From a virus (lineage: Duplodnaviria; Heunggongvirae; Uroviricota; Caudoviricetes): 64,000 bases of DNA. Of the stretch, positions 18,872-46,192 are shown piece by piece. Each line of letters opens with the position of its first letter. Position 1 is the stretch's first letter. Position numbers and translations under genes: made by a program. Where the stretch lies: positions 46,179 through 110,178 of IMG/VR virus record IMGVR_UViG_3300035492_000044, one strand, 5' to 3'. The notes beneath the pieces were generated by a model. It was not told where the DNA came from, did not search any database, and worked only from the letters and a program-made list of their open reading frames with translations.

Positions 18872-21106
18872 ATGATTGAGTTAGTGACTAAGCGAGATGG
18901 ATCTGTAGTCCCATTTGATGCAGATAAACTCAATATGTGGGCTGAGTATGCTTCCAACGAGGGAGTATCTTGGTCGTCAGTAGTCCTTGAGGCTGTAGAT
19001 AAGCTTCATAATCTGATTGAAACACGCAAGATTCAGCAAGCCCTGGTTGATGTTCTTATCTCCAAGAAGACTGAGGCAGCTGCACGTATGGCAGCTAAAC
19101 TCACTATTGGTGATATTTACAAACAGGTTCATGGTGGACTGTGGCCATCTCCATTCTCCCAGAGATACCGTCAACTGGTAGCTGATGGCTACTGGAAGGA
19201 CTACAATCTGACTGATGAGGAACTGGCTCGACTAGAAGCAGAAATTGATCATGACTTTGATCACACGTACGAGTATGCTTCTCTCCATCAATGGGCCAGT
19301 AGATATGCACTGAGGCGTAAGTCTGATGAGGAACTCGTTGAGTCTCCACAAGAGACCCTTATGGGTATCGCTATCTGCCTATTCGAACATGAGAAAGGTG
19401 ATCGTGTTCATCAGATGCTGCGGTACTACCGTAAGTCTAAGCCACGTAAGCTCAATCAGGCTACTCCGATTCTAGCTGCCTCTCGTACCGGTGAGAATGC
19501 CCAGGCGTCCTGCTGTGTAATCACTGCGGGGGATAGTATCCCTAGTCTAATGGCGGCTGAGAACGTAGCATTCGGCATGACTGCTGCACGTGCAGGTCTA
19601 GGTGTCGAATTCGATATCCGCTCCTATGGGGATATCGTAGGTAATAATAAGTGCAAGCACTCAGGAAAGATACCTCAGTTTAATAAACTGCTGCATTCCA
19701 TCAAGTCTGTCACCCAAGGTGTACGAGCAGGTGCGGCTACAGTAAGCTTCAACTGCATGGACCCAGAGTTCGAAGATCTAATTCGACTCAAGCGAGTTAC
19801 TACTCCGGAAGATCGTCGTATCCTTCTTCTGGACTACTCTCTGGTTATCAATAACGACTTCCTGTCTCGAGTAGCTCGTAATGATGACTGGATGCTAGTC
19901 TCTAAGAGAGTTGCCCCAGACCTGTGGCATGCCTTCTACGAAGACAGAGATGCATTCCCAGGTATCATGCAGAGATATCTGGATGAGCGTAAGGTAGGTG
20001 TCGGTACTGTAGTTAAGGCTCGTGAAGTACTTACTGCGTACATTCAATCTCGTTACGATACTGGTCGTTACTACCGCTTCAATGTGGATAACGTCAATGA
20101 TCACACACCGTTCCGTGATGTTGTTCGTTTATCTAACCTATGCCAAGAGATTGCTCTGGTAACCAAGGAGTATGGTTCCGTCATGGAACTATTCCGTGAA
20201 TATCAGGATGGTGATGGTATTACTGCACTGTGCTTCCTCCTAGCTGTTGACGTAGCTAAGATTGAGGATGACGAAGACTATGCTGAGACCATTAGCATTG
20301 GTCAGCGTGCTCTTGATAATATCATCCAGCACATGCACTATCCATTCCCGAATATCGAATCCACTGCCAAAGGATTCAATAGCATTGGTATTGGTATCAC
20401 CAACTTAGCTTATCTGTTGGCTCGAGAAGACCTGACATATAGCAGCGAGGAAGGTCGTAACTTCATCCATCGTCTATCTGAAACTCACCTGTATCACTCC
20501 ATTAAGTCGTCCATTGAGCTGGCTAAGGAGAGAGGTGCATTCAAGTTTATTGATAAGACTAAGTGGGGTGATGGCTATCTACCCATTGACTCGTACAAGC
20601 GTGAAATTGACGAACATCACTCTCAACCTCTGCTGCGTGACTGGGAATCTCTGAGACCTCAGCTGAGAACCTATGGATGTCGCTTCAGTACTCACGTAGC
20701 TCATATGCCGTGTGAGTCTTCAAGCGTATTTGGTTACAGTACTAATGGTCTATATCCGATTCGTCAAGGTATCCTACTCAAAGGTAAGGAGAGACTTCTC
20801 TTCATCGCACCTGAGTGGGAACGTCTGCAAGATAAGTACGAGATGGCATGGGACATCGCTACTCGTGACTTGTATAAGTGCTATGGTCTTGTCCAGAAAT
20901 TCTCTGATCAAGCTATCAGTGCTGATACTTATGTGGACTTCAGCCAGTATCCAGACGGTAAGGTACCTCTTCGTGAGTCTATGTCTGACTTCCTATTTGG
21001 TAATAAGATAGGTATGAAGACAGATTACTACCTCACTCCAAAGACTAGTTTCGATCTAGGTGGTGACGAGGGAACTGATCCATGTGGCGGTGCATGTAAA
21101 ATGTAA
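18872..21106 (+). CDS. nrdA: Ribonucleotide reductase class I large subunit with ATP-cone
   Basis: N-terminal 'VTKRDGSVVPFDADKL' ATP-cone, 'SNLCQEI' active-site motif, C-terminal 'CGGACKM' redox tail. Confidence 0.9.
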   Translation: MIELVTKRDGSVVPFDADKLNMWAEYASNEGVSWSSVVLEAVDKLHNLIETRKIQQALVDVLISKKTEAAARMAAKLTIGDIYKQVHGGLWPSPFSQRYRQLVADGYWKDYNLTDEELARLEAEIDHDFDHTYEYASLHQWASRYALRRKSDEELVESPQETLMGIAICLFEHEKGDRVHQMLRYYRKSKPRKLNQATPILAASRTGENAQASCCVITAGDSIPSLMAAENVAFGMTAARAGLGVEFDIRSYGDIVGNNKCKHSGKIPQFNKLLHSIKSVTQGVRAGAATVSFNCMDPEFEDLIRLKRVTTPEDRRILLLDYSLVINNDFLSRVARNDDWMLVSKRVAPDLWHAFYEDRDAFPGIMQRYLDERKVGVGTVVKAREVLTAYIQSRYDTGRYYRFNVDNVNDHTPFRDVVRLSNLCQEIALVTKEYGSVMELFREYQDGDGITALCFLLAVDVAKIEDDEDYAETISIGQRALDNIIQHMHYPFPNIESTAKGFNSIGIGITNLAYLLAREDLTYSSEEGRNFIHRLSETHLYHSIKSSIELAKERGAFKFIDKTKWGDGYLPIDSYKREIDEHHSQPLLRDWESLRPQLRTYGCRFSTHVAHMPCESSSVFGYSTNGLYPIRQGILLKGKERLLFIAPEWERLQDKYEMAWDIATRDLYKCYGLVQKFSDQAISADTYVDFSQYPDGKVPLRESMSDFLFGNKIGMKTDYYLTPKTSFDLGGDEGTDPCGGACKM

Positions 21107-26571: not shown

Positions 26572-27101
26572 GTCATGTTCGGATCTACCACTACCACATA
26601 ACCGTGGAGTGTGATCGTGAAGAACTGATTAATTTCTCCAAACTATTAGGAGCTAAGGCAACTACTATCGATTTGCATCGAGATGCCAGGATGCAGATTG
26701 ACCGTATGCTAACCAAATACTCCACCGATCTGGCAGATATGAAGAGTATTACTGCCAGTCATTCAACCCAGATCCACGAATTAGGATATGAGGTAAAGAG
26801 AGCAAAGATCGAGGAAGTCCTTAGTACCTTCGTAGGTATTGACATAAAGGACTACTTGTATCTTGAGGCTCATATCAAAGTGGCTGATGACGGCCATCTC
26901 CCGGACGTAGATGGATTCTCAATGTCCACTAATCCATTCCAGGGAAATAGATTCTATAATGCTCGTATTTATACTGAGGAAGACCTCGTACGATACTGGC
27001 GGAATATTAAGTATCTACCTAACATAGTCAAGACTCAACTCGAAGGAGTAGTCTATGACTCAAACCAAGACCACGACAAGTGGTGGAGTAATCATGAATA
27101 A
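26568..27101 (+). CDS. hypothetical protein
   Basis: ORF, ATGA-coupled to the upstream gene. Confidence 0.4.
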   Translation: MSHVRIYHYHITVECDREELINFSKLLGAKATTIDLHRDARMQIDRMLTKYSTDLADMKSITASHSTQIHELGYEVKRAKIEEVLSTFVGIDIKDYLYLEAHIKVADDGHLPDVDGFSMSTNPFQGNRFYNARIYTEEDLVRYWRNIKYLPNIVKTQLEGVVYDSNQDHDKWWSNHE

Positions 27102-27588
27102 AGCACAGAAAGTTCTTAGTAAGCTTCGTAGCATTAATGAGGGCTATATCGCTATCTCATTTGATGCAGATACACGTCAGCGTCTGTCGGAGATCTGTGA
27201 TCTTATTGGCGAGACTTCTATCATGGAGGAAATCTCCTTCGTCGATAGTAACGAGTTCCATACGACCCTCATGTACTCTCCCACTACCCCGGTACTAGAC
27301 ATCATTCCGGAACTGGTAGGTAAGACTATCGTGGCACATAACCCACGATTCCAACTGTTCGGACCAGAAAATGATGTACTCGTAATTCAGTTCGAATCTC
27401 CCGAGCTGGATATTCTGAATCAGAAGTACAAGGATATGGGTGAGATTCCAAGTGAACTGAGTGCAGAGTACAAGCCTCACATTACTCTGGCTAAGGATGT
27501 AGTAGGCCTTGAAATGCCTACTCTTCCGGCACTACCTCTCAACATCCCATTGGTTATTACTGACCATTACGCTGAAGAAATCAAGTAG
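27094..27588 (+). CDS. 2H phosphoesterase (LigT/Acb1-like) carrying the paralog-family N-terminal peptide
   Basis: Two HxT/S motifs, 'FHTTLMYS' and 'PHITLAKD'; N-terminal 'MNKAQKVLSKLRSINEG'. Confidence 0.7.
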   Translation: MNKAQKVLSKLRSINEGYIAISFDADTRQRLSEICDLIGETSIMEEISFVDSNEFHTTLMYSPTTPVLDIIPELVGKTIVAHNPRFQLFGPENDVLVIQFESPELDILNQKYKDMGEIPSELSAEYKPHITLAKDVVGLEMPTLPALPLNIPLVITDHYAEEIK

Positions 27589-34556: not shown

Positions 34557-35885
34557 ATGCTCGTATCTATCGCTATTGGCGTAGTTATCGCTCTGCTGGC
34601 TCTGGCAGTTATCGTTGCATTCATGTTCCGTCGTGTAGTACCGACTAACATGGTGCATATCGTGCAGTCCTCCAAGAAGACTACGGCCTATGGTCGGGGT
34701 AAAGATGACGGCAACACCTACTATGAATGGCCGAGCTTCCTGCCATTCATCGGTGTCAATGTCACTACCTTCCCTGAGTCGATCTTCCAGGTGAACCTGT
34801 CCGACTATGAAGCCTATGATTCGGCACGTCTGCCATTCATGGTTGATGTTGGTGCATTCTTCCGTGTCGATGACGCTAGCACTGCAGCTCAGCGTGTATC
34901 CTCCTTCGGTGAACTGCAACAGCAACTGGTATCGGTACTGCAGGGTGCAGTTCGTCGTATCCTGGCTACTAACTCTCTGGAAGAGATTATGCAGGAGCGT
35001 AGCAGCTTCGGCGTACAATTCACCAATGAGGTGAAGGATCAAATCAAAGAGTGGGGTGTTCTGCCTGTCAAGACTATCGAGTTCATGGACATCCGTGACT
35101 CCAAGGGTTCTCAGGTGATTCAGAACATCATGGCTAAGGAGAAGTCTCGTATCGAGATGGAATCCCGTGTCCAGGTAGCTGAGAACATGCAGAATGCTCA
35201 GCTGAAAGAGATCGATGCTCAGCGTACTGTTGACGTTCAGCAACAGGATGCACTGCAGCAGGTAGGTATCCGTACTGCTGAGAAAGACAAGATCGTTGGT
35301 ATTGCTAAAGAGCAATCTCAGCAGGAGATCAAGGCTCAGGCCAAGATTACCACTGAGCGTTCGATGGAAGTTACCAAGGTCGAACAAGTCCGTCATGCAG
35401 AAATCGCACGTGATGTGGCTGTAGTTCATGCTGAACAGCAGGCCAAGGTAGCTGTAGTGGCAGCTGATGCTGACAAGCAGACTACCATCGTCCGTGCTGA
35501 CGGTCAGCTGGAAGCTGCTAAGCGTGAAGCTGAGGGTATCAAGGTCAATGGTCTGGCAGCAGCTGAAGCTGAGAAGGCCATGCTCATGGCACCGGTCGAT
35601 ACCCAGATTACTCTGGCGAAAGAGATCGGTGAGAATCAGGGTTATCAGCAGTACCTGATCACCATCGAGCAAGTCAAGGCCAATCAGTTCGTAGGTATCG
35701 AGATGGCGAAAGCTCTCGGCCAGTCGGATCTGAAGATCATCGCCAACTCCGGCGATATCGGTGGTGGTGTGAAGAACTTGGTAGATCTGCTGTCTCCTCA
35801 GGGCGGTACTGCTATTGGCGGTATGCTGGAAGCTCTGAAGAACACTGATGCTGGTAAGGCTCTGCTGTCGAAAGTCGGTCAGTAA
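34557..35885 (+). CDS. SPFH/Band-7 (flotillin/YqiK-like) membrane protein
   Basis: N-terminal TM 'IAIGVVIALLALAVIVAF', PHB domain, long Q/A/E-rich coiled-coil, Gly-rich C-terminus. Confidence 0.75.
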   Translation: MLVSIAIGVVIALLALAVIVAFMFRRVVPTNMVHIVQSSKKTTAYGRGKDDGNTYYEWPSFLPFIGVNVTTFPESIFQVNLSDYEAYDSARLPFMVDVGAFFRVDDASTAAQRVSSFGELQQQLVSVLQGAVRRILATNSLEEIMQERSSFGVQFTNEVKDQIKEWGVLPVKTIEFMDIRDSKGSQVIQNIMAKEKSRIEMESRVQVAENMQNAQLKEIDAQRTVDVQQQDALQQVGIRTAEKDKIVGIAKEQSQQEIKAQAKITTERSMEVTKVEQVRHAEIARDVAVVHAEQQAKVAVVAADADKQTTIVRADGQLEAAKREAEGIKVNGLAAAEAEKAMLMAPVDTQITLAKEIGENQGYQQYLITIEQVKANQFVGIEMAKALGQSDLKIIANSGDIGGGVKNLVDLLSPQGGTAIGGMLEALKNTDAGKALLSKVGQ

Positions 35886-35895
35886 GACTCCAGAA

Positions 35896-35934
35896 CGACG
35901 TTTTCATAAGTCGAAAACCTGTTAGGTTGGAAGT
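35896..35934 (+). promoter_or_regulatory. Class-B motif copy at the entrance of the tRNA island
   Basis: 'CGACGTTTTCATAAGTCGAAAACCTGTTAGGTTGGAAG'; further copies at 36155 and 36319 precede tRNAs. Confidence 0.6.
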
Positions 35935-36059
35935 GGGAATAACTGGTGCTATCAGTCTGGCAGATTAGTTCGCAACTAATTGTCAATTCACTAGTGAGAA
36001 CGAAAACGAGATCCTCAGGATAAACGTCTTCTCAAGTCAAGACTGAATTCCCACGATTT

Positions 36060-36144
36060 CCGGGTATGGTGAAATCGGTAGACACAAGAGCCTTAAACCC
36101 TCTGGACTATTGTCATGCCAGTTCGAGTCTGGCTACCCGGACCA
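36060..36144 (+). tRNA. tRNA-Leu (anticodon TAA), type II
   Basis: Acceptor CCGGGTA/TACCCGG, long variable arm, T-arm GCCAG-TTCGAGT-CTGGC, encoded CCA. Confidence 0.75.
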
Positions 36145-36359
36145 TATTTCTAAACGACGTTTTACTACGTCGAAACCCTGTTAGGGTGGAAGACGAGTGT
36201 ATTTGAGAAGGCTGGCCAGAATAGCTTCTGGTAGGGTGAACTCTCTGGAGACCGATGACGCCATGCTTCGGTAGCGCATGAAGATGATCCGTCAGTCCTT
36301 CTCCAATACAATCTAGACCGACGTCCAAATAAATCGAAACCCTGTTAGGTTGGAAGTGC

Positions 36360-36438
36360 GATTAAAAGGACCCTAGGCTAACCTCAGTAGGTCTCCCCCA
36401 GATGCTGAAGCTGGATGTCCTAGGATCCTTTTAATCTC
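36360..36438 (+). repeat. Long imperfect inverted repeat (~17 bp arms, ATTAAAAGGACCCTAGG / CCTAGGATCCTTTTAAT) forming an ~80 nt stem-loop
   Basis: Lies directly between class-B motif 36319 and tRNA-Arg. Confidence 0.5.
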
Positions 36439-36443
36439 ATTTC

Positions 36444-36520
36444 GCGTCCATAGCTCATCTGGATAGAGCAGGGGATTTCTAATCCCCTGGTGGTAGGTTC
36501 GAGTCCTACTGGACGCGCCA
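36444..36520 (+). tRNA. tRNA-Arg (anticodon TCT)
   Basis: Acceptor GCGTCCA/TGGACGC, anticodon loop TTTCTAA in stem GGGGA/TCCCC, GGTTCGAGTCC T-arm, CCA. Confidence 0.8.
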
Positions 36521-36969
36521 TATACCCGGCACTTACTGATGTCGTAGCTCGATAAACTCTAGTATCATTAGTTAGGATCGAAACCTCTACTAATGCTCTA
36601 TTAGATAAGGTTGGGTCAGTGGAGCAGTAGCCCTTACGTGGAGTGGGTATGTGTCAGAAGAGGCACTCCGCTCGATAACTGTCACGTGTGAATAATGAAT
36701 ACTATGCAGCTAGTTTTATTATTCTGGGTTTAGATGTCATGCTGCTACTCATGCATTATTTCTCCTGTTGGAGAGTGCAGGCGGAGAGGAGGCATCCTCG
36801 TAGAAGCCGAGTAGAGTCGACCACGGTCTAGCGGTGGAGGCAGTGCCCGTACTGTCATTTAGAATGATATCCTTCGGCTGTAAGGATGACGGGTAATAGA
36901 GCAAGCGGTGAGTACTAACTGCCTGCAGGACTTTGATGTGGTGTCAGAGTCCTGTGGAGTAAGTATTCT

Positions 36970-37046
36970 GCGGAATTAGCTCAGTTGGATAGAGCATCTG
37001 CCTTCCAAGCAGAGGGTCACGAGTTCGAGTCTCGTATTCCGCTCCA
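36970..37046 (+). tRNA. tRNA-Gly (anticodon TCC)
   Basis: Acceptor GCGGAAT/ATTCCGC, loop CTTCCAA, U73, CCA. Confidence 0.8.
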
Positions 37047-37050
37047 TTAT

Positions 37051-37127
37051 TGGGGTATAGCACAGTTGGTAGTTGCGTCTGACTGTTAATCAGAATGTCG
37101 TAGGTTCGAGCCCTACTACCCCAGCCA
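37051..37127 (+). tRNA. tRNA-Asn (anticodon GTT)
   Basis: Acceptor TGGGGTA/TACCCCA, loop CTGTTAA, GGTTCGAGCCC T-arm, CCA. Confidence 0.7.
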
Positions 37128-37371
37128 AATTTGGTGTTACTCCCGATCGAAAGATACTGAAACATGAAATCGTCTCCGCACGATGTAGGCCTTACGAGGT
37201 CATGATCAGCCAAGAGATGACAGGTCCGAGTAGATTAGTAGCACCGTCTTAATCACGCAGAGGCGGACTGCATCGAGAGCCATTAGAAAAGTGTAACTCC
37301 ACGAGAACCTCAGACTCTGGACTACATGACCGGCACTAGCTTCACTCGATCTAATAATTAAACGCAACCAT

Positions 37372-37456
37372 GCGGATGTGGTGAAATTGGTAGACACACC
37401 TGGTTTAGGTCCAGACGCCTACGGGCGTGAGAGTTCGAATCTCTCCATCCGCACCA
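37372..37456 (+). tRNA. tRNA-Leu (anticodon TAG), type II
   Basis: Acceptor GCGGATG/CATCCGC, long variable arm, loop TTTAGGT, CCA. Confidence 0.65.
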
Positions 37457-37711
37457 TATTCGAGACCCCACTAGTCAGCCGAAGTACTGGTGGAGATTAG
37501 TGTCATGAGCTAGTCTGCCCAGGTCTCGAATCAAAACAGGAGAGTCCTTAGATGGTGCTATCTAGCCAGTTGCATTCGTAGTCTACCCGTCGGCTACATT
37601 GAATGCCTAAGTGACTCTCCGCCTATTATGGGGTATGCCTCGTCTAAAGCATTGGGATCTGTGATGATACCAGGGTGGGTAACTACGTAGTCCCACATAC
37701 TCCACCAGTTT

Positions 37712-37787
37712 GCCGGTATAGCTCAGCTGGTAGAGCAGCTGACTTGTAATCAGCAGGTCGTGAGTTCGAATCCCACTGCCGGCACCA
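37712..37787 (+). tRNA. tRNA-Thr (anticodon TGT)
   Basis: Acceptor GCCGGTA/TGCCGGC, stem GCTGA/TCAGC with loop CTTGTAA, CCA. Confidence 0.8.
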
Positions 37788-37799
37788 TATTGTGGTTAC

Positions 37800-37916
37800 T
37801 GGTTCCTATCATTATGTGGTTGGAAGCAAAAAGTCTAGTAATCACAACCTAATTGCTGTAATCCCTCTTGAAGTGAAACATGATGGACGGGAGTTCGACT
37901 CTCCCCAGCTCCACCA
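37800..37916 (+). ncRNA. ssrA: tmRNA acceptor piece (3' half of a permuted ssrA): T-arm + 3' acceptor strand + CCA
   Basis: 'GGACGGGAGTTCGACTCTCCCCAGCTCCACCA' ends 37916 and closely matches the E. coli tmRNA 3' end '..GGGTTCAACTCCC.CCAGCTCCACCA'. No matching 5' acceptor strand upstream. Left boundary is approximate. Confidence 0.65.
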
Positions 37917-37986
37917 TAGTTACCCTGGTAGTGACAGCCTTTGAGTGCGGTCTTAATCTACCATGGCTATCAGAGTAACTATGATG

Positions 37987-38240
37987 GGGCTGATCTGGAT
38001 TCGACATTGTGCGTAGTGAATAGAGGCAGCACAGGTAGATGACTGCCTGAAGTTGAGCCACCTTGCGGAAGGTCTGGGCTCAGCTGAAATAGCATAAATC
38101 AAGTAACTGCCAACGATGAATCGTTCGCACCTCTGGCTCTGGTTGCTTAAGTAACCTGATGCTGGTCGGGTATCTTCGGATCGCTCTCCTGCTATAGCTA
38201 ATACCTATAGTTGCCTCGGAACAGAAAGAGAGCACCTATT
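37987..38240 (+). ncRNA. ssrA: tmRNA coding piece (5' acceptor strand GGGGCTGATCTGGATTCGAC..., tag ORF ANDESFAPLALVA-stop)
   Basis: 'GGGGCTGATCTGGATTCGAC' at 37987 matches the tmRNA 5' end 'GGGGCUGAUUCUGGAUUCGAC'. Tag frame 'GCC AAC GAT GAA TCG TTC GCA CCT CTG GCT CTG GTT GCT TAA' at 38109-38150. Lies downstream of the CCA end, so the gene is circularly permuted. 3' boundary approximate. Confidence 0.7.
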
Positions 38241-38257
38241 TCATTAGTGAGGACTAA

Positions 38258-38467
38258 ATGGAACATCACATCCTTAATCTCACTGCCCAGAAGGGTCGCC
38301 TGTATTACTACCAGGGTAATTTCTACCATCCGCTTGATCTGGTAGGTAACTCGGTAGGTCTAGTGAAGAGAGGAATTCGAGAGTTCCTCGCTAAGAATAA
38401 AGATATGGTAGCTCGTGACAGAGCTAGCCCAGACTACAAGACTCTGGTTGAATTATCAGGTCTTTAA
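38258..38467 (+). CDS. hypothetical small protein
   Basis: ORF within the tRNA island. Confidence 0.3.
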   Translation: MEHHILNLTAQKGRLYYYQGNFYHPLDLVGNSVGLVKRGIREFLAKNKDMVARDRASPDYKTLVELSGL

Positions 38468-38570
38468 CTAATCCTGTCGTTGGGACTACCCAGTAGCCAT
38501 GAACTTCTGGGCGTCAGTAGAAGATACTGGACCAGTACGAAACCTGGTAATAATTAATTAGGAGAGCAGC

Positions 38571-38774
38571 ATGATGCTATCTGAGTTGGGTCAACGTATC
38601 TTGGCCCACTATGTTGAAAGACGTAGCGGTAAGTCGGGTAACTACATCCCTACTGACTGTGATCGTAAAGCAGCTCAACTAGCTGCTGAGAATACCACGG
38701 ATCATCTACGTGGAGCTACTGTTATGGCTCGGATGTATGATGACAAGCTTGCTGGTAAGGCTCCTATTAAGTAG
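38571..38774 (+). CDS. hypothetical small protein
   Basis: ORF with RBS 'ggagag'. Confidence 0.3.
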   Translation: MMLSELGQRILAHYVERRSGKSGNYIPTDCDRKAAQLAAENTTDHLRGATVMARMYDDKLAGKAPIK

Positions 38775-38917
38775 GAGCCGACTCGTACTTTCTGATGAGT
38801 AGCCCGAGTATAAAAGGCACGAAACTGTAATAGTCAAAGAGCCACTGATGGTGGCCAGTTAGTAACTCACACTGTAGCTAACTGAATTACGTTTGCAGAG
38901 GACCGTCAATCTGAAGC

Positions 38918-39625
38918 ATGAAGTGTACGCCTATGGTACTGACACTACCTTGGAAGTTGTACTGTGCTGGCGCTATACCAGCACTTAATACAGTGCAGCC
39001 TACAATCTATTCTTGCCTCGAACTGGATGAGTCCACAGAGGATGCGCACTTGAGTAGATTGTGGGAAGTACTGGAGATAATCATGACCAGAGAAGATTTA
39101 ATAAATCTATCCAAGATACCTCCTTCAAATATATCAGTAGCAAAGTCTCTTGAAGCTAGAGGTTATCCATATTATGGTAACCTAAAATCTTCATATCCGA
39201 TTCATTGGGCCAGCTTCTCTGCTATGCACGGAAGAGTTAGAGATTTTGGCCTTGATTGTGATTTTCCTAGAAATGTGGATGGATTTATTGATTTTATCCT
39301 TTATGTCGGACCTGTTCCTGGAGATATGATTAGGCCAACTCTTGGTAGATCAGATCATTCAATTGGGTACTTAAAGGGTAATTTTAAGTGGCAGGAGTCC
39401 AGTGATAATACATCGGAGTCTGCTACAAGAAACAAGACTGTAGTCAAGATTCAAGAGTGTCGTTTAAATAGGTTGGAAGACCTAGTAAGTAGTCTAGGGG
39501 ATAAAGTTGAAATAGACTCCTTATTTACGACCTCTCACTTTAGATATAAGAAGGATTTGTACAGGCTACTTAGAAGTAGGGGATATAAAATATCTTCTGA
39601 CTATAAAGTAGCTAGTAAAGTTTAA
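38918..39625 (+). CDS. HNH homing endonuclease (paralog 1)
   Basis: 'LGRSDHSIGYLKGNFKWQ' resembles the HNH 'RIDNxxGYxxxNxRW' motif; AT-rich codon usage differs from the neighbours; embedded between tRNAs. Confidence 0.5.
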   Translation: MKCTPMVLTLPWKLYCAGAIPALNTVQPTIYSCLELDESTEDAHLSRLWEVLEIIMTREDLINLSKIPPSNISVAKSLEARGYPYYGNLKSSYPIHWASFSAMHGRVRDFGLDCDFPRNVDGFIDFILYVGPVPGDMIRPTLGRSDHSIGYLKGNFKWQESSDNTSESATRNKTVVKIQECRLNRLEDLVSSLGDKVEIDSLFTTSHFRYKKDLYRLLRSRGYKISSDYKVASKV

Positions 39626-39626
39626 T

Positions 39627-39716
39627 GGAGAGTTGGCCGAGTGGTTTAAGGCACCTGACTTGAAATCAGACGGATCAGCAATGGTCCCCAGGGTTCGAAT
39701 CCCTGGCTCTCCACCA
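39627..39716 (+). tRNA. tRNA-Ser (anticodon TGA), type II
   Basis: Acceptor GGAGAG../..CTCTCC, long variable arm, loop CTTGAAA, GGTTCGAATCC T-arm, CCA. Confidence 0.7.
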
Positions 39717-40045
39717 TATTGACCTAAGAAGATTACACTCATCATGGGTGGGATTAGCCTCTTATCTTCTTGGTCAATATTCTCTGTTACTCACAAGTAC
39801 CTTAACTAACAACTGCACAGACGTTAGCCAACCAGATGTGAGTAATCGAGGTTCCACTCTCATTCCGAGAGTGTTGATAAGGGGGTGATCCTTATCTCCG
39901 GCTGCAGCTACGGATACTGCAGAAAGGCTAGTTAATGTCGTGAGACATCGACAGGCCTACCGTTGTACCAGAGGCGAATAGGGTAGCTCCCGTTCCAGCA
40001 CTGCTTTGCTGGATAGCCTCTTCTTATACCTAAGCAGAGGTTAGT

Positions 40046-40585
40046 ATGAACATACCTGAAATAAAATATGATACCGAGTACCTAATAAAAATAGCTTTCC
40101 ATAATTTTGATTTATGGAGCCATCACGAGCAAATGGCCGTTAAGTCTATGGAAGCTAGAGGTATTCCATGTTATGGTTTATTACCTAAAATGTTTCCGAT
40201 TCATCGGAACCGTTTTAGAAATATGCATAATAGAATAGACGAACAGTGTTTAGAGACTTCGTTTAAAAGAGATTTAGAAGGTTTTGCTAAATTTGTGGAA
40301 TATCTTGGACCAGTTCCTACTGAAATGAAAGTCCCGTCTTTAGGAAGAATCGATCATTCTAAAGGTTATGTAATAGGCAACTTTACATGGCAGGAACTTA
40401 GAGATAATATAGAAGAAATGGCCAATAGAACCAAGTCTTCAGATAATAAGTTCTGGGTAAACAGCCCAGGATGCACAGGTTATAGATGGTATAACGACGG
40501 ACAGACTGAATTCTTTCTGAGAGAAAATAATCCTTTAATTGAAGACGCTGGTCTAGTTAGAGGTCGGTTTTCTAATCGACGTTAA
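40046..40585 (+). CDS. HNH homing endonuclease (paralog 2)
   Basis: 'SLGRIDHSKGYVIGNFTWQ' HNH motif; clear paralogy to 38918-39625 ('EARGIPCYG', 'LGPVPTEMKVPSLGR'). Confidence 0.55.
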   Translation: MNIPEIKYDTEYLIKIAFHNFDLWSHHEQMAVKSMEARGIPCYGLLPKMFPIHRNRFRNMHNRIDEQCLETSFKRDLEGFAKFVEYLGPVPTEMKVPSLGRIDHSKGYVIGNFTWQELRDNIEEMANRTKSSDNKFWVNSPGCTGYRWYNDGQTEFFLRENNPLIEDAGLVRGRFSNRR

Positions 40586-40638
40586 TCCATCAGAAGCCAC
40601 TAATGCTGTGGAAAACTCTGCAAAAATTTAGGTGACTT

Positions 40639-40932
40639 ATGAATAAGGTAGTTAGATTCCTTAATGCCATTCGTAGGTCACACCCAGATATGGTCGAGTT
40701 GTATACTCAGGGCCAATGCTACAACTTCCATCTTATCCTCCGAGAGGTCTTCCCAGATGCTGTTGCCTGGTATGACCCAGTTGAGGGCCATGTGTACTCC
40801 AAGATTGGAGACTGCTGGTACGATATAAGAGGAAGACATTTCAAACTGGATCCACGAGCTAGTATTCTGGATCATCGTATGTCCGACAAACCTCATCGCT
40901 GGGGTGGACGTGATAGAAGAAGACTAAGGTGA
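40639..40932 (+). CDS. hypothetical protein
   Basis: ORF. Confidence 0.4.
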   Translation: MNKVVRFLNAIRRSHPDMVELYTQGQCYNFHLILREVFPDAVAWYDPVEGHVYSKIGDCWYDIRGRHFKLDPRASILDHRMSDKPHRWGGRDRRRLR

Positions 40933-40935
40933 GTT

Positions 40936-41502
40936 ATGGCTCGTAAATCATTCAAGGACATGACCCAGTTTCAAGTAGGCCAGCACTTCTGTGAATGTGA
41001 TCTAGGCCAGGTACTCGAGTTCGCTATCACTACCGAACCTGTAGTTAAGGACGTGGATGGTCGACGCCAGATTACCTGGACAGGTCGTGACGTGAAGACT
41101 CAGCGGGATATTGAGTATCTCGTTACTGAGGGCTTCGAACATTATGGCCCTAAGATCTACGACCCAGCTGACATGTTCAGCCCAGAGGATGTAGCTCTTG
41201 CTCTCCGACAGTTGCGCCAGTCTCCTAATGTCCTTCAGAAGGTCGAGGTAGATCCTGGTGCACCTGGTGGTGATGAGACGGTAGTTAGCTGTATAGTTCC
41301 TATTAATGGAAAAGATCATCACCTAGTCCTACCGGTTACATTGCATTATCGTGGTATCTGCAGACTGGCTGGATATAATGACGACAGACTGTACACCATT
41401 ACCTACGTCTCTCAGCAAGGTAGTGGTATAGTCGGGCCTAATGACTCTCTCCAGATTACAGCTGGTACAAAGATAAATGTGGCATTGACCAACAATGCAT
41501 AA
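40936..41502 (+). CDS. hypothetical protein
   Basis: ORF. Confidence 0.4.
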   Translation: MARKSFKDMTQFQVGQHFCECDLGQVLEFAITTEPVVKDVDGRRQITWTGRDVKTQRDIEYLVTEGFEHYGPKIYDPADMFSPEDVALALRQLRQSPNVLQKVEVDPGAPGGDETVVSCIVPINGKDHHLVLPVTLHYRGICRLAGYNDDRLYTITYVSQQGSGIVGPNDSLQITAGTKINVALTNNA

Positions 41503-41546
41503 CGACTTCCAGATAGTCCGAAACCCTGTTAGGGTGGAAGTCGGAA

Positions 41547-41888
41547 ATGGAGAGAGTTATGCTTGGTAAACCCATGAAGTCGATTAAGGTTCAATATGAG
41601 CCTGGCTGGAATGGTGGAACTTGGTCTGTAGTCAGTCGGAAGATTGATGCAGTATCTAAAGTCCACGATCTTCCTATGGATGTCAAGGTCAAGATACGGG
41701 GTATCCTAATCGACGCCTGTAAATCTACTCGAAAGGGTACTGACTATGACATGGGCCATCAGTACGACTGGGAATCCTGGGACCTGACTCTTAAGGTCAA
41801 GACTGAACTGGGTGTAATGGAGTTCAGTTTCTATGAGTATGCCCAGAAGCATCCTCGAGTCAAGACCTGGGAGATCTTCTACGAATAA
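41547..41888 (+). CDS. hypothetical protein
   Basis: ORF after class-B motif 41503. Confidence 0.4.
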   Translation: MERVMLGKPMKSIKVQYEPGWNGGTWSVVSRKIDAVSKVHDLPMDVKVKIRGILIDACKSTRKGTDYDMGHQYDWESWDLTLKVKTELGVMEFSFYEYAQKHPRVKTWEIFYE

Positions 41889-41966
41889 GGGCCTCTAGCA
41901 TAACTGGTAAATGCGTCCGGCTCATAACCGGAGGACAGATCGGTTCGAATCCGACGGGGCCCACCA
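41889..41966 (+). tRNA. tRNA-Met/Ile2 (anticodon CAT)
   Basis: Acceptor GGGCCTC/GGGGCCC, stem TCCGG/CCGGA with loop CTCATAA, GGTTCGAATCC T-arm, CCA. G1-C72 pair means it is not an initiator. Confidence 0.75.
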
Positions 41967-45526: not shown

Positions 45527-46192
45527 ATGAGCATTGCTCAGTTAGTTACTTTCATGAAGGAAGTTGATGGTCTCCGATTCACTGGTCGCTGGAATGGCCA
45601 CTTTATGTTCGATCGGAGTAATGTTGCTGAGCACAGCTTCCGGGTAGCATGGTGGGCTAGTCTCATCACCGACACGTACACCACTACCGATCGTGGTGAT
45701 AATACTCCTCTCTGCACAGTGAACGAGCATGAGCTCTACTCCTGTGTCCAGCGTACCATCCTGTCTCACGACATGGCTGAGAAGTACACTGGTGATGTTC
45801 GTCATGACATCAAGCGTGAGTACCCCACTCTGAAGGCAGTGCTGGATGATGTGGAAGAGGATCTCCTCAATCGTGTCATGCCATTCCGGAATAAGGTCAC
45901 TTATAGTGACGAAGTCCGTAAGATCACCAAGGCTATCTACAAGGGAGCTGACATTCTCGACTTCACTCTGGAGGCATTGAAAGAGATGAAGCGTGGTAAT
46001 GAGATCGTCGACTTCCCAGTAGCAGTAGTCCGTGGTCTGGTTCATATCCAGAGCCTTCCAGTCGAGGATGTTTCCTACATCTGCGAGGCTATGTTCTCCT
46101 ACATGCTGAACTCGTACGGTTATGAGTACAATAAACTCCGTGACCAGTACGCCAGTCAAGCTCAGTTCCACACTGATGGCGTTAGTGCCTAA
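45527..46192 (+). CDS. HD-domain phosphohydrolase (YfbR-like 5'-deoxynucleotidase)
   Basis: 'VAEHSFRVA' (H) and 'ILSHDMAE' (HD) motifs. Confidence 0.65.
   Translation: MSIAQLVTFMKEVDGLRFTGRWNGHFMFDRSNVAEHSFRVAWWASLITDTYTTTDRGDNTPLCTVNEHELYSCVQRTILSHDMAEKYTGDVRHDIKREYPTLKAVLDDVEEDLLNRVMPFRNKVTYSDEVRKITKAIYKGADILDFTLEALKEMKRGNEIVDFPVAVVRGLVHIQSLPVEDVSYICEAMFSYMLNSYGYEYNKLRDQYASQAQFHTDGVSA

Follow-up and report, generated by a model that had tools for sequence, protein, structure and literature searches.

The tailed-phage record IMGVR_UViG_3300035492_000044 (Caudoviricetes) contains, within a stretch of 64,000 nucleotides that is here called the window in its full length (positions 46,179 to 110,178 of the record), an island of transfer RNA (tRNA) genes in which lies an ssrA gene for transfer-messenger RNA (tmRNA). 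This gene is confirmed as a real, circularly permuted ssrA of the two-piece form, in which the CCA-ending acceptor half is encoded upstream of the GGGG-starting coding half, as an earlier note made from the letters alone had proposed, and on this point ARAGORN, Rfam, co-folding and covariation concur; its architecture is beta-type. The location that the same note had given, inside a phage tRNA island, also holds. The island is an array of eight tRNA genes, all on the + strand, which runs tRNA-Leu(taa), tRNA-Arg(tct), tRNA-Gly(tcc), tRNA-Asn(gtt), tRNA-Leu(tag), tRNA-Thr(tgt), the tmRNA gene, tRNA-Ser(tga) and tRNA-Met(cat), and in at least five of these eight genes the CCA end is encoded. Coordinates, counted from the first letter of the window, are collected in Table 1.

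Detection of the permuted gene and its tRNA-like domain

The ARAGORN call is a permuted tmRNA (tmRNA*) that spans 37824-38241 and carries the tag ANDESFAPLALVA. In Rfam 15, the model RF04321 (tmRNA_permuted) matches over its full length (model positions 1-213) with 104 bits and E 3e-19, the gathering cut-off being 47 bits, and RF01850 (beta_tmRNA), with a gathering cut-off of 84 bits, likewise matches over its full length (model positions 1-331) with 86.6 bits and E 1e-24, outscoring at this locus the other models of the tRNA/tmRNA clan (alpha, cyano and standard). The earlier note had called for a gene-finder run and a covariance-model alignment; the former has returned the permuted call with the same tag and the latter two matches above their cut-offs. 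Because the permuted ARAGORN call stands together with RF04321 and RF01850 scores above the gathering cut-offs, the set of sequence features of a permuted tmRNA gene is far beyond chance expectation.

The order of the two halves is seen in the acceptor strands. Within 500 nt on either side of the 3' acceptor strand, CAGCUCC, the sole 7-mer that pairs with it at 7/7 positions is GGGGCUG at 37986, and none lies upstream, in agreement with the claim that the T-arm and 3' acceptor strand have no 5' partner ahead of them; across the whole 64 kb, 13 sites pair 7/7 with CAGCUCC when G-U is allowed, and exact GGGGCTG occurs twice. The matching 5' end, GGGGCTGATCTGGATTCGAC, is present downstream of the CCA after a gap of 69 nt, although its start has to be moved from 37987, where the earlier note had put it, to 37986. 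The finding that the note had named as speaking against permutation, a one-piece tmRNA 3' end downstream of the tag, was looked for throughout the 64 kb and is not there: the T-arm/acceptor pattern has one perfect match, 37893-37916, and whatever else matches belongs to the 3' ends of complete tRNAs.

Co-folding of the trimmed pieces 37854-37916 and 37986-38031, with no constraints, gives as its minimum-energy structure the canonical tRNA-like domain, with an acceptor stem of 7 bp, the T-arm, and the helix segments P2a, P2b and P2c. The number of intermolecular pairs is 24, to which P2 contributes 17 bp in its three segments. These folds, together with Rfam-guided ones, replaced an unconstrained co-fold of the full-length pieces that had put P2 on the 5' extension. 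The acceptor stem carries G37988·U37910 at the position of G3·U70, an identity element of alanyl-tRNA synthetase (AlaRS), and is followed by a discriminator A and an encoded CCA. The T-loop is of the GUUCRA type, and the 5' strand leads into a D-loop analogue of the GG..UUCGAC form, AUCUGGAUUCGAC.

Table 1. Features of the tmRNA gene and its surroundings, in window coordinates
Feature	Position	Strand	Basis or remark
tRNA island with tmRNA gene	36060-41966	+	ARAGORN, Rfam tRNA matches
Spacer/5' extension, 66 nt	37788-37853	+	from tRNA-Thr 3' end (37787) to first P2 strand
Acceptor piece, core	37854-37916	+	Rfam alignment, unconstrained co-fold, covariation
P2c 5' strand UGCUG	37854-37858	+
P2b 5' strand CCUCU	37864-37868	+
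P2a 5' strand CAUGAUG	37879-37885	+
T-arm GGGAG / loop UUCGACU / CUCCC	37889-37893 / 37901-37905	+
3' acceptor strand CAGCUCC	37906-37912	+
Discriminator A, then encoded CCA	37913, 37914-37916	+
Intervening segment, 69 nt	37917-37985	+	fold and covariation
Coding piece, 5' part	37986-38031	+	trimmed-piece co-fold; begins GGGGCTGATCTGGATTCGAC
5' acceptor strand GGGGCUG	37986-37992	+
D-loop analogue AUCUGGAUUCGA	37993-38004	+
P2a 3' strand CAUUGUG	38005-38011	+
P2b 3' strand AGAGG	38022-38026	+
P2c 3' strand CAGCA	38027-38031	+
PK1-position region, two tandem hairpins	38032-38108	+	fold -29.5 kcal/mol, z -3.46
Hairpin 1, 7 bp, AUGA loop	38032-38049	+
Hairpin 2, 14 bp, GCGG loop	38051-38085	+
Tag reading frame	38109-38150	+	resume codon GCC; encodes ANDESFAPLALVA; stop UAA 38148-38150
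P5 hairpin, stop codon in loop	38133-38165	+	-13.0 kcal/mol, z -2.55; last helix of RF01850
P5 core GGUUGC / UUAA / GUAACC	38141-38146 / 38151-38156	+
3' pseudoknot domain	38166-38233	+	homologous to the family's terminal H-type pseudoknot
S1 (U)CGGG / CUCG(G)	38166-38170 / 38215-38219	+	by-eye reading only
Inserted C(UUCG)G hairpin	38172-38181	+
S2 GCUCUC / GAGAGC	38183-38188 / 38228-38233	+
Inserted hairpin CUAUAG/CUAUAG	38192-38210	+
Conserved loop 3 AACAGAAA	38220-38227	+

Covariation among relatives and the precursor helix

About 30 related permuted tmRNA genes were gathered from cultured phages, viral contigs and metagenomes, the sources being cultured phages that match the acceptor piece, a degenerate T-arm/acceptor pattern and a P2 motif in IMG/VR, and the same motif, gapped, in metagenomes. 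The collected genes have the CCA-before-GGGG order and proteobacterial-style tags, and tags similar to that of the window include ANDTSFDVRLAA, ANEDIFEAPLALAA and ANEKFALVA. A scan with the 16-mer AATTGCTGTAATCCCT returned mainly chance matches, with a tmRNA at 5 of 29 loci, and the exact 27-mer of the T-arm plus acceptor had no match among the IMG/VR viral contigs searched.

Covariation was scored on alignments of 20-21 distinct sequences in a fixed register. Pairing reaches 100% in the acceptor stem and in the T-arm (20 sequences), and the G3·U70 pair is invariant in 21/21 relatives. P2a is 95.7% paired (20 sequences) with all seven of its pairs changed on both sides; not one of 500 column shuffles gave as high a covariation score, and pairing falls to 43-54% once the partner is slid by 1-3 columns. 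In the distal P2 segments pairing comes to 62-63% when one register is imposed throughout, a low figure because bulge positions differ and the alignment drifts in distant members. A direct comparison of the window with the Samunavirus phage PA_L9 gives compensatory differences in both P2a and P2b, the latter reading CCUCU/AGAGG in the window vs CCUUC/GAAGG in PA_L9.

The intervening segment has a structure of its own. Its ends pair (UAGUUAC 37917-37923 with GUAACUA 37975-37981), the pairing runs on inward, and the paired ends lengthen the acceptor stem into a single long precursor hairpin, the fold of 37906-37992 having -39.3 kcal/mol and z -5.4. A 4-nt leader, UGAU (37982-37985), stands directly before G1 (37986), at the expected RNase P site. 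In all family members the bases after the CCA are complementary to bases ahead of a short leader, which is usually UGAU, and the intervening segments of relatives, 27 to 207 nt long, are without common sequence. The terminal stem of the segment is nevertheless 89.6% paired across 21 members, 11/11 pairs being changed on both sides, and again none of 500 shuffles matches the score. We infer from this covarying helix that the precursor may be built for an RNase P cut at G1 and for trimming to the encoded CCA, a route suggested because two-piece tmRNAs are so described (PMC11915505), and the intervening segment is expected to be removed from the precursor.

These observations bear on the possibility that the gene is not permuted, 37889-37916 being a tRNA fragment or attachment-site remnant and the GGGG RNA a one-piece tmRNA, or a fragment of one, with its 3' end elsewhere. 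Fragments of tmRNA genes are common at prophage integration sites (PMC9004378), and several of the viral-contig matches to the T-arm/acceptor pattern were indeed fragments or one-piece genes. At this locus, however, every other T-arm/acceptor match belongs to a complete tRNA, so that the tag has no second 3' end downstream of it; the upstream half holds the 5' strands of P2, which form 17 bp with the coding half; the helix of the intervening segment covaries in 21 sequences; RF04321 and RF01850 both match over their full lengths; and there is no integrase among the window open reading frames (ORFs) scanned. The Rfam matches, the 3'-end search, the covariation and the co-fold refute the one-piece reading, the chance of which is put at next to nothing.

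The mRNA-like domain and the surroundings of the gene

The tag frame that the earlier note had placed at 38109-38150 is open and translates to ANDESFAPLALVA followed by a stop; it opens with an alanine resume codon, has a hydrophobic end, and its stop codon lies in a hairpin. The N-terminus is the canonical proteobacterial ANDE.. and the hydrophobic C-terminus is ..ALVA, and in the Rfam alignment the block GCC AAC GAU GAA .. UUC GCA aligns to the beta_tmRNA consensus. With the charged alanine included, the added tag would read AANDESFAPLALVA. A C-terminus ending in ..LVA is a working ClpXP degron in E. coli reporter studies.

The region between P2 and the tag, where the first pseudoknot (PK1) is placed in the family, is expanded. 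Its two tandem hairpins are followed by a 23-nt single strand that ends in GUAACU just 5' of the resume codon. In the Infernal alignment 43-47 nt are inserted directly behind P2; relative to the family the insertion is ~43 nt, most of it hairpin 2, and the tag starts 123 nt past G1 vs ~85 nt in most relatives; the 43-nt insertion is absent from PA_L9 and from a further relative, L091. A candidate for PK1 stem 2, GAU with AUC, offers no more than three possible pairs and was rejected as evidence. In E. coli tmRNA, mutational work reportedly found PK1 to be replaceable by a stable hairpin.

In the 3' pseudoknot domain, it is the comparison with relatives that is informative. Stem 1 of the family's pseudoknot is short and rich in G. 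S2 reads UCCUCCCC/GGGGAGGG in PA_L9 vs GCUCUC/GAGAGC in the window, a compensatory change, and it reads GCCAGCUG/CAGCUGGC in L071 and GGUGGUUU/AAGCCACC in L061; in these two and in L011, L037 and L044 the sequence differs yet complementarity is kept. Loop 3 is conserved in the family as ..AACAGAA.. or ..UUACCAAA.., and both inserted hairpins differ from those of PA_L9 in a compensatory manner, the inner one reading CUAUAG/CUAUAG vs CUACGG/CCGUAG and the small one AUC-UUCG-GAU vs AGCC-UCCG-GGCU. An automatic longest-stem search for the pseudoknot was noisy and found the right stem in about half of the sequences. Among the folds by which the earlier note had wanted its proposal judged, the pairing of GGGGCUG with CAGCUCC was thus obtained and the 3' pseudoknot is supported by comparison, but PK1 could not be demonstrated. 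The 3' end of the coding piece is placed between 38234 and ~38250, with no U-tail, and the next ORF starts at 38258.

The window copy also differs from most relatives in its flanks. Most relatives have a sigma70-like promoter directly upstream of P2 (TTGACA-N17-TATAAT in L032), which the window and PA_L9 lack, and in most of them S2 is followed by a U-run, so that stem 2 doubles as a terminator. The window and Samunavirus copies, without a recognisable promoter or U-tail, lie directly behind a tRNA gene, tRNA-Thr in the window and tRNA-Arg in the Samunavirus phage SM1. The unpaired 5' region of RF01850 (positions 1 to ~50, aligned to 37807-37853) resembles a sigma70 promoter, ..UUGA..N17..UAuAAU; the RF01850 score is partly promoter sequence, and promoter-less copies such as that of the window are therefore penalised. 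Most of the collected relatives score 104-171 bits on this model, and the Samunavirus gene scores 101 bits. In the spacer behind tRNA-Thr there is a hairpin with a perfect outer stem of 13 bp (37790-37802 with 37836-37848; -20.5 kcal/mol, z -3.15, 0/200 shuffles as stable), which may serve as a signal for processing or may be retained in the mature acceptor piece.

Small ORFs lie between the island tRNAs. One of the two at 40639-40932 and 41547-41888 (+) encodes a YunG-like phage protein (PF24591, E 7e-24), and the other has a weak, sub-threshold match to the HNH/Endo VII 'GH-E' family (E 0.0016) and is possibly a homing-type nuclease. Rfam finds no riboswitch in the tRNA island. Permuted tmRNA genes in or beside tRNA arrays are also seen on several contigs of viral or metagenomic origin, the longest of 198 kb (L037, L018, L006, L024, L076 and L089). 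On two of them, L006 and L018, the acceptor pattern lies beside a tRNA array, yet ARAGORN calls no tmRNA. On the 198-kb contig VFQS010000038.1 (L089, 8493-8583) the acceptor piece stands behind an array of seven tRNAs and has its own promoter-like TATAAT; it reads ..CUCCACCG, the terminal A of the CCA not being encoded, and the stored locus stops before the coding piece.

The phage, the proposed function and known systems

The large ORFs of the window match phage families of replication and transcription, namely an SbcCD-like nuclease, a topoisomerase II, a class I ribonucleotide reductase, a DEAD/Rad3-type helicase and a family A DNA polymerase (PolA), and the beta' subunit of a multisubunit RNA polymerase (RNAP) is present in two pieces (split); G+C is 43-50% throughout. 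At the DNA level the window has no close counterpart among cultured phages. Its PolA and RNAP beta' share 34-44% identity with those of Acinetobacter phage Ab1-TPeters, Ralstonia phage RP13 and Escherichia phages EP_H11 and IME392, and in comparison with the ~200-kb Rhizobium RHph_TM phages the identities are 29% for PolA and 38% for RNAP beta'. Since these matches are distant and none is close in DNA, the window comes from a large, jumbo-type, poorly sampled phage, the host of which is probably a proteobacterium. An 11-kb stretch of it is 100% identical to the Logan contig L093 (public run SRR11791770), which adds no variation.

Six viral contigs (L079-L084, one of them 205 kb) encode the SPFH/Band-7 protein found at 34557-35885 of the window, and share no other gene of its neighbourhood. 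They were rejected as a diverged branch of the same lineage, the protein being 57-58% identical in amino acids and the gene alone being shared, with no synteny and no tRNA or tmRNA, and the SPFH gene appears to move between large phages independently. A search anchored on the dUTPase gave no match, and a 235-aa neighbour has a single near-identical homologue. Elsewhere in the window, a 177-aa ORF at 27055-27588 (+) matches the Pfam family Acb1 anti-CBASS (PF23474, E 3.3e-12, 46.8 bits, cut-off 27) and is a candidate counter-defence gene.

The tmRNA gene very probably gives rise to a working two-piece tmRNA that relies on host factors. Without its own promoter and terminator, it would be transcribed as part of the tRNA-island transcript, in which the intervening segment would fold back and lengthen the acceptor stem into a helix like that of a tRNA precursor. 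Host RNase P would cleave ahead of G37986, 3' trimming would halt at the encoded CCA (37916), and the outer ends would be made by tRNA-type or RNase E-type processing. The mature RNA, which would be held together by the 24 bp of P2 and the acceptor stem, would be loaded with alanine by host AlaRS and brought by host SmpB and EF-Tu to ribosomes that have stalled on mRNAs which are broken or have no stop codon. Translation would then resume at the GCC at 38109, the nascent chain would receive AANDESFAPLALVA, and host proteases would degrade the product. The phage would benefit in that ribosomes are kept free while host and phage mRNAs are cut during infection, and the host tmRNA may be supplemented or replaced, with a tag specified by the phage. 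A rescue role in host shutoff or mRNA decay, as the earlier note had suggested, is plausible; the specific benefit to the phage is the least certain part of the scheme, held with lower confidence than the working two-piece tmRNA itself.

Several observations weigh against a working gene. The + strand shows no sigma70-like promoter from 35800 to 40381, and no terminator was detected. By eye there is no second stem of PK1, in whose place stand the two plain hairpins (38032-38049 and 38051-38085), and the outer ends of both pieces are not fixed by sequence. The margin on RF01850 is thin, 86.6 vs 84 bits. The co-fold of the tRNA-like domain is only mildly more stable than shuffles (z -1.67), and the weight of the argument is therefore comparative; the 3' domain is no more stable than shuffles (z +0.39), and its case therefore stands on comparison. 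The SPFH, dUTPase and 235-aa neighbour anchors led to no diverged relatives of the phage lineage in which conservation of the gene and of its window-specific insertions could be read. No SmpB domain was found in the 20 window ORFs of compatible size, and the best E was 1.3 when the window was searched by tblastn with an approximate E. coli SmpB query; function would depend on host SmpB accepting the phage RNA, unless an smpB gene lies outside the 64-kb window.

Some of these points are what a pseudogene would show, one recently acquired into the tRNA island and now decaying or non-functional, neither processed nor used: the copy is without its own promoter and terminator, unlike most family members, it barely passes RF01850 (86.6 vs 84), it has a large insertion at the PK1 site with no stem 2 found, and no diverged relatives are at hand in which lineage conservation could be read. 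All scorable elements are nevertheless intact, namely 7/7 acceptor pairs, G3·U70, the CCA, the T-arm, the 17 P2 pairs, the tag frame and the stop-codon loop. The insertions in the PK1 region are stable hairpins and not random sequence (z -3.46), and the extra hairpins of the 3' domain are common to the Samunavirus phages and differ from them by compensatory changes. Moreover, PA_L9 and SM1 also have no recognisable promoter and lie directly behind a tRNA, which suggests an alternative mode of expression rather than decay. The pseudogene reading is unlikely, and only a small chance is left to it.

Another proposal is that the RNA mainly manipulates host trans-translation, by titrating SmpB or by out-competing the host tmRNA, so that stalled products would carry a phage tag that directs them to other adaptors or proteases. 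As the search of the window yielded no SmpB gene, the RNA would draw on the host pool, and the tag is unlike typical host tags, being longer and ending in ..PLALVA. Pseudomonas and Achromobacter, the hosts of the cultured carriers, use a one-piece tmRNA, so that the phage RNA fills no gap there. A precedent for interference is the RNA of mycobacteriophage DS6A, which consists of a tRNA-like domain (TLD) only and is cited as inhibiting tmRNA in PMC11915505 and PMC4131195. The complete tag frame, the resume-codon context and the stop-codon hairpin are, however, kept across the family, which argues that the mRNA function is used, and the ANDE.. start and hydrophobic A-L-V-A end fit ordinary proteolytic tagging. 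Manipulation as the principal role is accordingly considered improbable; it overlaps with, and does not exclude, the rescue by a working two-piece tmRNA that is preferred here.

The origin of the gene can be approached through the P2 helix. The gapped P2 signature AAUUGCUGUAAUCCC..GGACGG, which the window has in common with the Samunavirus phages and with several large contigs of viral or metagenomic origin, gave six metagenome matches, five of which are real tmRNA genes. Among bacterial and archaeal species representatives (185,579 genomes) it matched twice, both times by chance inside unrelated sequence; being a narrow, exact-match search, the genome scan is a lead and not a result. Because the signature marks no real tmRNA gene in the genome scan and the hosts of the cultured carriers have one-piece tmRNAs, there is a hint, tentative at best, that these beta-type two-piece tmRNAs form a sub-lineage kept in phages and not recently captured from a host, the window and Samunavirus copies having a derived mode of expression. 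It is conceivable, if rather doubtful, that in these copies the promoter-to-terminator cassette was lost and the RNA came to be cut from the tRNA-operon transcript, and that in the phage of the window PK1 was also replaced by plain hairpins. If this were true, the phage of the window would be a natural test of the dispensability of PK1. A copy that has no promoter or terminator and has hairpins for PK1, together with the covarying precursor helix, leads to predictions on processing and on which elements are dispensable. The gene adds a well-supported example, from an unsampled jumbo-type phage lineage, to the phages that have their own ribosome-rescue RNA, and leaves the current picture of trans-translation and of phage auxiliary translation genes unchanged.

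Phage-encoded tmRNAs have been surveyed before. Buchholz et al. (2022) found tmRNA in 402 of 18,146 phage genomes, and among 133 unique phage forms 53 were two-piece, mostly from aquatic phages (PMC9004378), so the earlier note overstated the case in regarding a permuted gene in a phage as notable. Permuted genes listed in Table S1 of that study include those of Pseudomonas phage SM1, Caulobacter phages CcrSC and CcrBL9 (317-322 kb), Stenotrophomonas phages Mendera and Moby, and Sphingobium phage Lacusarx (PMC9004378). The phage tmRNAs listed by Hudson et al. (2014) are exclusively one-piece or TLD-only (PMC4131195), Al-Shayeb et al. (2020) described huge phages with tmRNAs and SmpB (PMC7162821), and the 2025 tmRNA database, the source of the RF04321 model, includes 79 sequences from phages and 11,946 that are permuted (PMC11915505). 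Two-piece phage tmRNAs, those of jumbo phages included, are already documented, and the window gene is a further example.

Cultured lytic phages, namely PA_L9 and SM1 of the Samunavirus group and Achromobacter phage JWDelta, carry the same type of gene. Permuted tmRNAs were seen in the cultured phages PP869205.1 (L001 1459-1894, ~80285-80720 of the record) and KF787094.1 (L002 ~1439-2124, ~19705-20390 of the record), and on an IMG/VR contig of 93,191 bp (L008 10387-10807). In the examined records of Samunavirus phages and of Achromobacter phage JWDelta no feature is annotated under the tmRNA match, and the PaMx31 record is without any annotation. For JWDelta the ARAGORN tag (AQQSW...) looks wrong, the alignment giving ANDDYIRLAA. 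In the literature searched, no report of a Samunavirus or JWDelta tmRNA was found, apart from the SM1 row in Table S1 of PMC9004378. This amounts to an annotation gap, the gene type being present and unannotated in the examined therapeutic-candidate Samunavirus records and in JWDelta.

Among known systems, the marine myophages (Methylophilales phage Melnitz and the pelagimyophages) and the jumbo Caulobacter phages CcrSC and CcrBL9 are lytic phages, some larger than 300 kb, that likewise carry permuted ssrA genes (PMC9004378). The tmRNA of Melnitz has, however, been placed with the alphaproteobacterial lineage; the 3' domain of its gene contains a glutamine riboswitch, and the gene lies behind an early promoter (PMC9004378), whereas that of the window is beta-type. 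The one-piece tmRNAs of the mycobacteriophage Bxz1 group and of Bacillus phage G are also phage-borne trans-translation parts, which usually occur in large, tRNA-rich phages, but they are not permuted (PMC4131195), and the TLD-only RNA of DS6A is a phage-borne component of trans-translation that has no tag frame and is not permuted (PMC4131195).

The beta-type, described as a 'third lineage' of permuted ssrA by Sharkady and Williams (2004), as cited in PMC9004378 and PMC11915505, is represented by RF01850, with which the window gene, a divergent and expanded member of the type, shares the gene order, the tRNA-like domain, a long P2, a tag that starts ANDE.F. and a stop codon in the P5 loop. 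It differs from that model in its 3' acceptor strand (CAGCUCC vs the consensus CACCUCC), in being without the promoter-like 5' region, in the 43-47-nt insertion after P2, and in lying in a phage tRNA array rather than on a bacterial chromosome. The closest relatives found are the genes of the Samunavirus phages SM1, PA_L9, PaMx31, FBPa45 and UF_RH6, which are 81-83% identical over the acceptor piece and 85% identical over part of the 3' domain, have the same P2 5' strand, AAUUGCUGUAAUCCC, and a 3' pseudoknot that is likewise expanded by two inserted hairpins, and are beta-type by Rfam (101 bits). Their tag is ANDTSFDVRLAA, their intervening segment is 112 nt long vs 69 in the window, and they are without the 43-nt insertion in the PK1 region; the phages themselves are siphoviruses of 93 kb that are unrelated to the jumbo-type phage of the window.

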